A model generated the notes under the pieces. It did not search any database. It saw nothing but the letters and a program-made list of their open reading frames with translations, and was not told the DNA's origin. 34,584 bases of DNA, from IMG/VR virus record IMGVR_UViG_2734482772_000010. The stretch is one strand, 5' to 3'. The translations under genes and the position numbers were made by a program. Shown here in pieces: positions 22,983-23,747 of this stretch. Source of the stretch: a virus. Taxonomy: Duplodnaviria > Heunggongvirae > Uroviricota > Caudoviricetes. Position 1 is the stretch's first letter. Every line of letters begins with the position of its first letter.

Positions 22983-23747
22983 ATGAAAATGCAGACATTA
23001 CCCATCGTTCCATGGATTGGTGGCAAACGTCGCCTTGCAAAACACATTCTGCCGCTGTTTCCGGCGCATGAATGTTATGTGGAGCCGTTTTGTGGGGCAG
23101 CAGCGCTCTATTTTCTTAAGACACCTGGTAAGCTCGAAGTCATTAACGATATCAATGGTGAACTGGTGAATCTGTACCGGGTGGTAAAACATCACCTGGA
23201 AGAATTTATCCGCCAGTTCAAATGGGCGCTGGTCAGCCGTCAGATCTACAAATGGCTGCAGATCACCCCGGAAGAAACACTGACGGATATCCAGCGTGCA
23301 GCACGGTTCTACTACCTTCAGAAGCAGGCGTTTGGCGGCAAGGTGGCAGAGCACAGCTTCGGTACCTCCACCACATCCCCGCCACGCTTCAACTTGCTGC
23401 GTATTGAAGAAGAACTGTCAGCGGCACACCTGCGACTTTCCAGAACAGTCATAGAACACATGGACTGGCAACAGTGCATTGAGCGTTATGACCGCCCGCA
23501 CACGCTGTTCTACTGCGACCCGCCGTATCTGGGTACGGAAGGCTATGGTGTGGATTTTCCTGAAGGGAACTACTCGCGGCTGGCAGAGCTGGCCCGGTGC
23601 ATCAGAGGAAAAATGATAATTTCGGTGAACGACATCCCGCAGATGCGCGAGGTGTTCACTGGACTGAACATACAGACAGTGAATATCAACTACAGTCTGG
23701 CGGGCAAATCAACGCCGCGCCGTGAGCTGGTGATTTGCAATTTTTAA
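22983..23747 (+). CDS. DNA N6-adenine methyltransferase, Dam-type (orphan)
   Basis: 254-aa ORF; N-terminal WIGGKRRL and catalytic FYCDPPY (DPPY motif) typical of Dam methyltransferases; no adjacent restriction endonuclease gene. Confidence 0.8.
   Translation: MKMQTLPIVPWIGGKRRLAKHILPLFPAHECYVEPFCGAAALYFLKTPGKLEVINDINGELVNLYRVVKHHLEEFIRQFKWALVSRQIYKWLQITPEETLTDIQRAARFYYLQKQAFGGKVAEHSFGTSTTSPPRFNLLRIEEELSAAHLRLSRTVIEHMDWQQCIERYDRPHTLFYCDPPYLGTEGYGVDFPEGNYSRLAELARCIRGKMIISVNDIPQMREVFTGLNIQTVNINYSLAGKSTPRRELVICNF

Follow-up and report, generated by a model that had tools for sequence, protein, structure and literature searches.

The gene at positions 22983..23747 (+ strand) of a 34,584-nucleotide viral DNA, IMG/VR record IMGVR_UViG_2734482772_000010 (hereafter the window, meaning the whole stretch analysed), encodes an orphan D12-class (alpha) N6-adenine DNA methyltransferase (MTase) of 254 amino acids. 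It is preceded by a conserved leader RNA of about 145 nucleotides, the structure of which is read from sequence covariation and which has no counterpart in Rfam 15. As a whole, the window is a transposable prophage of the BcepMu type with divergent arms, and the MTase gene sits between its late arm (− strand) and its repressor and early arm. We propose, with a probability of roughly 60%, that this stand-alone enzyme is the prophage's equivalent of Mom, the DNA modification function of phage Mu: silent in the lysogen, expressed in lytic growth, gated by its leader and methylating the phage's own DNA against restriction, probably at a site other than GATC. The proposal builds on the protein family, the catalytic motifs, the orphan status, the RNA structure and the association of relatives with Com. 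The protein itself is ordinary and belongs to an already catalogued family; the leader is the new element reported here.

The leader, which forms the 5′ untranslated region of the MTase gene (22840..22982, + strand), comprises helices P1, P2, P2b, P3 and P4. P2 has the form CACAG-N7-CUGUG and is followed by the short P2b and by P3, and P4 pairs AGCCU with AGGCU of the ribosome-binding region. The ~145 nucleotides are almost invariant in the window, Klebsiella phage KP12, Escherichia coli EC958, strain 97.3 and Escherichia phage PhiKM, despite differing upstream genes. Among 35 distinct sequences from six genera, analysed with RNAalifold and by pair counts, 97% of cells are paired and 12 pairs have changed on both sides. 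Covariation in this set is 0.278, compared with 0.160 after shuffling; none of 500 shuffles reached the observed score, and controls with slid pairing partners stayed at or below 0.11. As the G·U wobbles fit the + strand only, the structure lies in the sense RNA. With one leader per lineage (54 leaders), 30 of 35 pairs are compensatory (covariation 0.461 versus 0.169) in an alignment that was fitted to the covariance model and is therefore biased toward the structure; RNAalifold's own fold of the same alignment keeps P1–P3, with 22 of 23 pairs compensatory. A conserved small open reading frame (ORF) within the leader was rejected, because neither its ATG nor its frame is conserved among relatives.

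A covariance model built from the 35 leaders matches the window at 22840-22988 with 167 bits. The model also finds the element in front of MTases that are only 57–75% identical, in Beta- and Gammaproteobacteria. Its matches always lie on the sense strand and end at the first start codon; at loci with Com, the leader is located upstream of com. In a protein-independent scan of IMG/VR, the leader core CCACAGN{6,8}CTGTGAGCCN{4,8}RRGGY matched at least 120 contigs, and an MTase of the window family begins 39–83 nucleotides downstream in 107 of the 113 viral contigs with enough downstream sequence. Searches against Rfam 15 gave no relevant match for the window (E ≤ 10), for 11 loci (gathering score) or for five divergent loci (E ≤ 1). 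A 'D12-methyl' motif was reportedly described by Weinberg et al. in 2017; the term is absent from the main text of their paper. An earlier reading of the window made from its letters alone (the sequence-only reading) did not mention the leader.

We suggest tentatively that the leader may represent a cis-regulatory RNA class, so far uncatalogued, that serves phage D12 adenine MTases specifically and is conserved from Escherichia to Nitrosomonas and Pseudomonas phages. Such an RNA might gate a potentially toxic, non-GATC or relaxed enzyme through a phage or host factor, with the invariant P2 hairpin as candidate site, and might be an RNA-level counterpart or partner of Com. Present with or without Com, the leader offers a handle on how prophages keep such MTases silent as lysogens and let them be expressed during lytic growth.

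The effect of the leader on translation is predicted to be modest. The accessibility of the ribosome-binding region is 0.40 in native leaders and 0.49 when the upstream sequence is shuffled, and it is lower in the native form in 46 of 54 cases (p = 2e-7). The leader would thus occlude the ribosome-binding site partially rather than lock it tightly, and because the occlusion is modest it may act otherwise, through stability, antitermination or protein binding. At one locus (L096) leaders occur in tandem (5223-5371 and 5858-6006), the first being followed by ~60 nucleotides of an MTase 5′ end and then by an inserted gene of 154 amino acids on the opposite strand. This arrangement suggests that the leader and MTase start may be a hotspot for the insertion of accessory genes.

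The MTase shows the alpha order of motifs: xWxGGK, motif I, D56, a hairpin at residues 117–137, then DPPY. W11-I-G-G-K15 is encoded at 23013-23027, the S-adenosylmethionine-binding motif I is E34-P-F-C-G38 (codons from 23082), and the catalytic motif IV, D179-P-P-Y182 (23517-23528), is invariant among 79 family members. The Pfam model PF02086 (D12 class N6 adenine MTase) matches residues 11-234 of 254 with E = 2.9e-29 (103 bits, cut-off 22), and the NCBIfam model TIGR00571 ('dam subfamily') is passed narrowly (118.4 compared with a cut-off of 114.85). Full-length matches were obtained with phrog_56 (E = 1.5e-100) and with the PADLOC model MTase_II (E = 3e-112). Searched against the PDB, the family profile matches DpnM (8.5e-23) and E. 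coli Dam (1.6e-21) over the full length, and T4 Dam more weakly. These results bear out the sequence-only reading, which had recognized a Dam-family N6-adenine MTase from its DPPY and WIGGK motifs and had placed it exactly, at 22983-23747; the ORF starts with ATG. The start-codon context AAAAGGCTTAC-N5-6-ATGAAA is common to all close relatives, which supports the ATG at 22983 as the MTase start. Some records give the protein an N-terminal extension (285 or 320 amino acids) that reads through the leader, for example at PhiKM 3913-4767 and in a protein of 320 amino acids; because the ATG at 22983 is conserved and the covariation pattern of the leader is non-coding, these annotations are suggested to be mis-called starts. 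An AlphaFold2 (AF2) model of the MTase is poor (predicted local distance difference test score 59.5), since only homologues of at least 85% identity were supplied; a fold search with it returned Dam and DpnM at the top, with TM scores of ~0.4, and the model is unusable at residue level.

The MTase gene is widespread. It is found in 531 of 5,426 complete E. coli genomes (~10%), mostly at 95–99% identity, and close relatives occur in Salmonella, Citrobacter, Enterobacter, Klebsiella, Serratia, Yersinia, Photorhabdus, Xenorhabdus and other genera. The ST131 strain EC958 has one copy, with 96.5% nucleotide identity to the window gene, in the same slot (between holin and repressor) of the same type of BcepMu-like prophage. 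Forde et al. (2015, PMC4659465) give M.EcoMIV (EC958_1101, prophage Phi2; a REBASE name) as the sole prophage-borne D12 enzyme of EC958 and list no other D12 MTase besides Dam. We therefore take the EC958 copy to be almost certainly M.EcoMIV, as it is the single copy in a genome for which one non-Dam D12 MTase is given. The two loci share the leader and the orphan D12 enzyme in addition to the prophage slot. They differ by a few substitutions and in their accessory genes: EC958 lacks the DUF2441 and lipoprotein genes of the window and carries a P-loop-like ORF of 242 amino acids and an ORF of 72 amino acids instead. Transcription of M.EcoMIV was significantly below that of dam in mid-log culture, and the EC958 methylome contained no motif that was assignable to it (PMC4659465). 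In the same study, no homologue of more than 65% identity had a known site, and the REBASE label 'type IIA' ('asymmetric site') was only putative (PMC4659465). We found no assignment of a site to M.EcoMIV in the literature after 2015. The literature on specificity also includes AamA of Acinetobacter (RAATTY).

The genomic positions of relatives point to a Mom-like role. Our sample of 160 MTase-relative loci, of which 80 come from species-representative genomes and the other 80 from IMG/VR, falls into 82 lineages (MTase clusters at 90% identity). In 31 loci, corresponding to 18 of the 82 lineages, the start of the MTase is adjoined or overlapped by a Com-type zinc ribbon (PF10122), the MTases there being 57–75% identical to that of the window. 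In 31 of the 82 lineages, a contig end is no more than 1.2 kb from the MTase, which often follows Mu gp47/gp48-type baseplate genes. In phage B3, ORF48 is overlapped by ORF47 (Com) and shares 63% identity with the window MTase over the full length (E = 1e-123); B3 carries this type of MTase in place of Mom, the activity of ORF48 being untested (Drozdz et al., PMC3299994). In other Mu-like prophages, the place of Mom has been taken by the non-specific enzymes Hia5 and Hin1523, which are Dam-related and, like Nma1821, alpha-class, Com-linked and silent in lysogens (PMC3299994). By analogy, the best explanation of the MTase is that it is the phage's counterpart of the Mu Mom function, within a 'Mom-substitute' family that includes B3 ORF48 and M.EcoMIV. 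The anti-restriction role put forward in the sequence-only reading is thus the best-supported one, since relatives hold the com-mom position of Mu-like phages (PMC3299994). The Dam-dependent regulation of mom in Mu, to which that reading also pointed, has no counterpart here, as the window has neither mom nor com; a search of its ORFs for a Com-like protein returned none, and a Com gene was rejected.

The comparison with Mu and B3 is close in some respects and not in others. As with com-mom of Mu, the window would have a late, tightly controlled and potentially harmful DNA modification in a transposable phage that encodes a Mor/C-family activator, with post-transcriptional control through mRNA structure around the ribosome-binding site. 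In contrast, Mom has an acyltransferase fold and makes N6-carbamoylmethyl-adenine, whereas the window encodes an MTase with a Rossmann fold; Com is missing from the window, as is any evident Dam/OxyR-type promoter control; and the modification gene lies at the right end of Mu but at the genome centre of the window. B3, too, is transposable, with early and late arms that diverge and with lysis genes like those of BcepMu. It differs in having an overlapping Com translational activator, with the pair placed among tail genes, and the leader model finds no leader in B3 and only a weak one in the B3-like phage Bise. In Bise (locus L166), the leader, a possible com ORF and the MTase stand at the phage end, immediately preceded by a gene of the reverse-transcriptase family (1061-2092). 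Further relatives, gp26 of Burkholderia phage phi1026b and gp27 of phiE125, are 65% identical to the window MTase but stand in a lambda-like siphovirus context. Woods et al. (2002, J Bacteriol) are said to have described N6-methyladenine in phiE125 DNA and an adenine MTase encoded by that phage. We know of no reported site for either enzyme.

Transcription of the MTase gene may depend on a dyad-like motif, TAAACCGCATTAATAG, at 22791..22806 (+ strand), 34 nucleotides upstream of the leader and conserved in relatives, which is a candidate promoter or activator site. A second copy, TAAACAGCGTTAATAG, at 21774..21789 (+ strand), lies in the 59 nucleotides that separate the start of the holin gene from the first accessory ORF running rightward, and these two are the only mismatch-free matches to TAAACNGCRTTAANAG in the window. 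Relatives without the inserted accessory genes have a single copy, and their leader directly adjoins the divergent holin gene. A consensus scan found no sigma-70 promoter upstream of the MTase, and this candidate was rejected. With copies of the motif at the start of the late operon and before the leader, and a Mor-family gene in the phage, transcription would be late or middle and activator-dependent, which would fit the silence of M.EcoMIV in the lysogen. Both the promoter-proximal motif and the opening bases of the leader occur twice (21774-21830 and 22791-22850), and the start of an ORF of 113 amino acids (ATGATTACTTTGAAAAACGA, 21811) is similar to the 5′ end of the leader (…TTTGAAAGAACGA). 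This duplication suggests that the accessory genes at 21811-22754 were inserted into the leader region.

In the proposed mechanism, the MTase gene would be essentially silent in the lysogen. Upon induction, a Mor-type activator would switch on the promoter region that the gene shares with the late operon, giving an MTase mRNA that would open with the folded ~145-nucleotide leader; the last helix, partly covering the ribosome-binding site, would limit or gate translation. The enzyme would then methylate adenines of the replicating phage DNA before packaging, probably at a non-GATC site, and the methylated DNA, once injected, would resist restriction in the next host. We infer here the timing, the promoter, the activator, the translational gating and the anti-restriction role.

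Several points weigh against this scheme. The window has no Com, and mom-like control is therefore only partly paralleled. The distance between motif and leader varies by 7 nucleotides among relatives, which weakens the model of a fixed activator site, and the occlusion of the ribosome-binding site (0.40 compared with 0.49) is modest. The anti-restriction role is drawn from the analogy of Mom, Hia5 and further orphan MTases of phages, and the equation of the EC958 copy with M.EcoMIV is an inference rather than a sequence-verified match. The mapping of Dam residues described below is a sequence-profile alignment at ~22% identity, for which the AF2 model is too poor to serve as a check. Finally, statements made here about the activity, target, transcription start and timing of the MTase are predictions.

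To examine target specificity, a profile of 79 family members was aligned with E. coli Dam, giving the same register as the pairwise alignment. In E. coli Dam, the contact of R124 with Gua4 is the first and most discriminating one, Y119 intercalates, and K9 and Y138 read the first base pair through a contact that is not conserved across the family (PMC4417163). The intercalating aromatic is retained (Y119 corresponds to F117, invariant in the family), but R124 corresponds to A122, a position that is A or E in the family. The other positions mapped have also changed: N120 to G118, L122 to K120, P134 to S132 and K9 to P10; the Dam motif FNVPFGRY becomes TTSPPR(L/F)N. The MTase fails the Dam equivalog model NF008152 by a wide margin (67.1 bits compared with a cut-off of 441). 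In the window, GATC occurs 83 times compared with 163 expected (ratio 0.51), a weak signal for specificity, and only five sites lie in the last 8.7 kb (the early region, 25875-34584). Also depleted are CTAG (4 observed, 11 expected), GGCGCC (1 and 19) and CGGCCG (1 and 8), and depletion of the four sites is consistent with restriction-site avoidance. With the R124-type arginine missing, the equivalog model failed and GATC two-fold under-represented, canonical GATC specificity of the MTase appears doubtful.

The alternative that the MTase is a true Dam with GATC specificity, redundant with that of the host like those of T4, P1 and Stx phage 933W, and serving full GATC methylation of fast-replicating DNA or control of packaging or lysogeny, is accordingly one that we regard as unlikely, though not negligible. 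The MTase shares the class and motif order of E. coli Dam, DpnM and T4 Dam, its closest solved structures, all GATC enzymes, with profile matches of 1e-21 to 1e-23; it passes the TIGR00571 cut-off, narrowly; and it keeps the aromatic at the Y119 position. Set against this are the ~22% identity to E. coli Dam, the changed recognition residues, the failed equivalog model, the depletion of GATC and the REBASE record, which has no site for any homologue above 65% identity and a putative 'asymmetric site' class (PMC4659465). Of the 'Dam-type' label in the sequence-only reading, the family assignment (D12, TIGR00571) stands and the GATC-specific sense is doubtful; the alignment with characterized Dam enzymes that it called for kept the aromatic and lost the arginine. 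Its view that the target could not be inferred from the sequence holds, as neither the missing arginine nor the GATC counts reveal the site. Defining that site would fill a gap in enterobacterial methylome annotation, the family being very widespread (including in pandemic ST131), named in REBASE and without the key GATC-reading arginine.

About as unlikely as a GATC-specific Dam is a relaxed or non-specific adenine MTase (like Hia5/Hin1523 or M.EcoGII), which would modify a large fraction of adenines for broad, Mom-like protection and whose toxicity would explain the tight control. The elaborate leader and the silence in lysogens fit such an enzyme, as do the Com-coupled relatives in the mom position of Mu-like phages (PMC3299994) and the loss of the R124-type contact, given that E. 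coli Dam R124A loses discrimination of the fourth base pair (PMC4417163). On the other side, the hairpin and recognition region is strongly conserved across the family (F117, G127, T130, T131, N137 and R140), and a defined site therefore fits better than none. The Com-linked MTase of Haemophilus phage SuMu (gp53), which we take to be Hia5-type, resembles the window enzyme at the level of motifs only (BLASTP E = 0.02); its recognition region is unlike, and similarity beyond the catalytic and N-terminal motifs is undetectable. B3 ORF48, moreover, is not among the 1000 nearest relatives of Hia5 (PMC3299994), and on these two grounds membership of the Hia5 family was rejected.

We consider it highly improbable that the MTase regulates prophage or host genes epigenetically in the lysogen, a role reported for the Dam of 933W in lysogeny maintenance. 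Its presence in ~10% of complete E. coli genomes and its position next to the immunity region would suit such a function, but the EC958 homologue is transcribed far below dam and has no detectable motif in the lysogen methylome. In addition, the gene is oriented away from the repressor operon and insulated from it by a GC-rich hairpin of 9 bp (23761..23785) that separates the MTase stop from the convergent lipoprotein/repressor operon. This hairpin, with fold z-scores of −3.6 (+ strand) and −3.3 (− strand) and a U-run on the − strand only, is likely to be a terminator; a consensus terminator scan did not call it.

The genes around the MTase vary. All ORFs within 3 kb of the MTase were clustered, and no neighbour family is conserved with it beyond a minority of the 82 lineages. 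Among 59 loci of close relatives (MTase identity of at least 78%), a holin is nearby in 57, whereas the other neighbours seen in the window recur in few or some: the DUF2441 gene in three, the 113-amino-acid ORF in seven and the lipoprotein gene in 24. The defence, restriction and nuclease models of PADLOC and Pfam gave no match to MTase neighbours. The DUF2441 gene (22173-22754, − strand) is divergent from the MTase, and the AF2 model of its product is confident. It resembles BC2332, a protein of unknown function, and shows a weak but consistent likeness to proteins with an ADP-ribosyltransferase fold (AcrF11, Arr, DarT and RES toxins); a fold search with the predicted model found no nuclease fold. 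Judged from this model, the protein may be an ADP-ribosyltransferase-like toxin, or a defence or anti-defence moron. As no neighbour is conserved, none matches a nuclease or defence model and the DUF2441 fold is not that of a nuclease, the MTase is a true orphan; a cognate restriction gene close by was looked for and none was found, in agreement with the sequence-only reading, which had seen no adjacent restriction endonuclease gene. That the MTase is the modification half of a restriction–modification, defence or toxin pair with the DUF2441 or the lipoprotein gene, for which the divergent adjacency of DUF2441 here, in KP12 and at locus L105 and its weak likeness to ADP-ribosyltransferase toxins would speak, is largely refuted by these results, by the family sizes (34 clusters for DUF2441, at least 7,935 for the MTase) and by the E. 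coli genomes, including EC958, which has the MTase and neither neighbour.

The lipoprotein gene (23792-24337, − strand) encodes a predicted lipoprotein of 181 amino acids with a lipobox, LSGC, after MRKLFIPLIFV; it has no match in Pfam and a weak one to phrog_10002. It follows the repressor gene directly, in the same orientation, and is therefore probably expressed in the lysogen, making it a candidate lysogenic-conversion or exclusion gene.

The sequence-only reading had accurately placed the MTase gene in a central accessory region. This region lies between the leftward late and rightward early arms. The late genes start with the holin (21368-21751, − strand) and continue leftward with lysis, terminase, portal, head, tail and baseplate genes. 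On the other side lies the CI-type repressor, listed as an ORF at 24361-24867 (− strand). A strong early promoter (24788-24815, + strand; TTGACA-16-TACAAT) drives the rightward early operon, the genes of which run from 24854 and include a DDE transposase (26650-28419, + strand), a B-like ATPase, Gam and GemA. The Mor-family transcription activator (33226..33612, + strand; PF08765, E = 5.2e-41) stands at the end of this operon. As listed, the repressor ORF begins at a TTG that overlaps the early promoter; from the sequence, its true start is probably an internal ATG (MSIKERLREAM…), matching the annotations of 118–136 amino acids in relatives. Escherichia phage PhiKM (classified as Bcepmuvirus), Klebsiella phage KP12 and E. 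coli prophages are the records nearest to the window. Of these, OM835952.1 (KP12 clone KP12_2) is filed under Vequintavirinae, but by sequence it is a transposable phage of the BcepMu type, collinear with the window; a co-assembled prophage with a wrong taxonomy line is the probable explanation.

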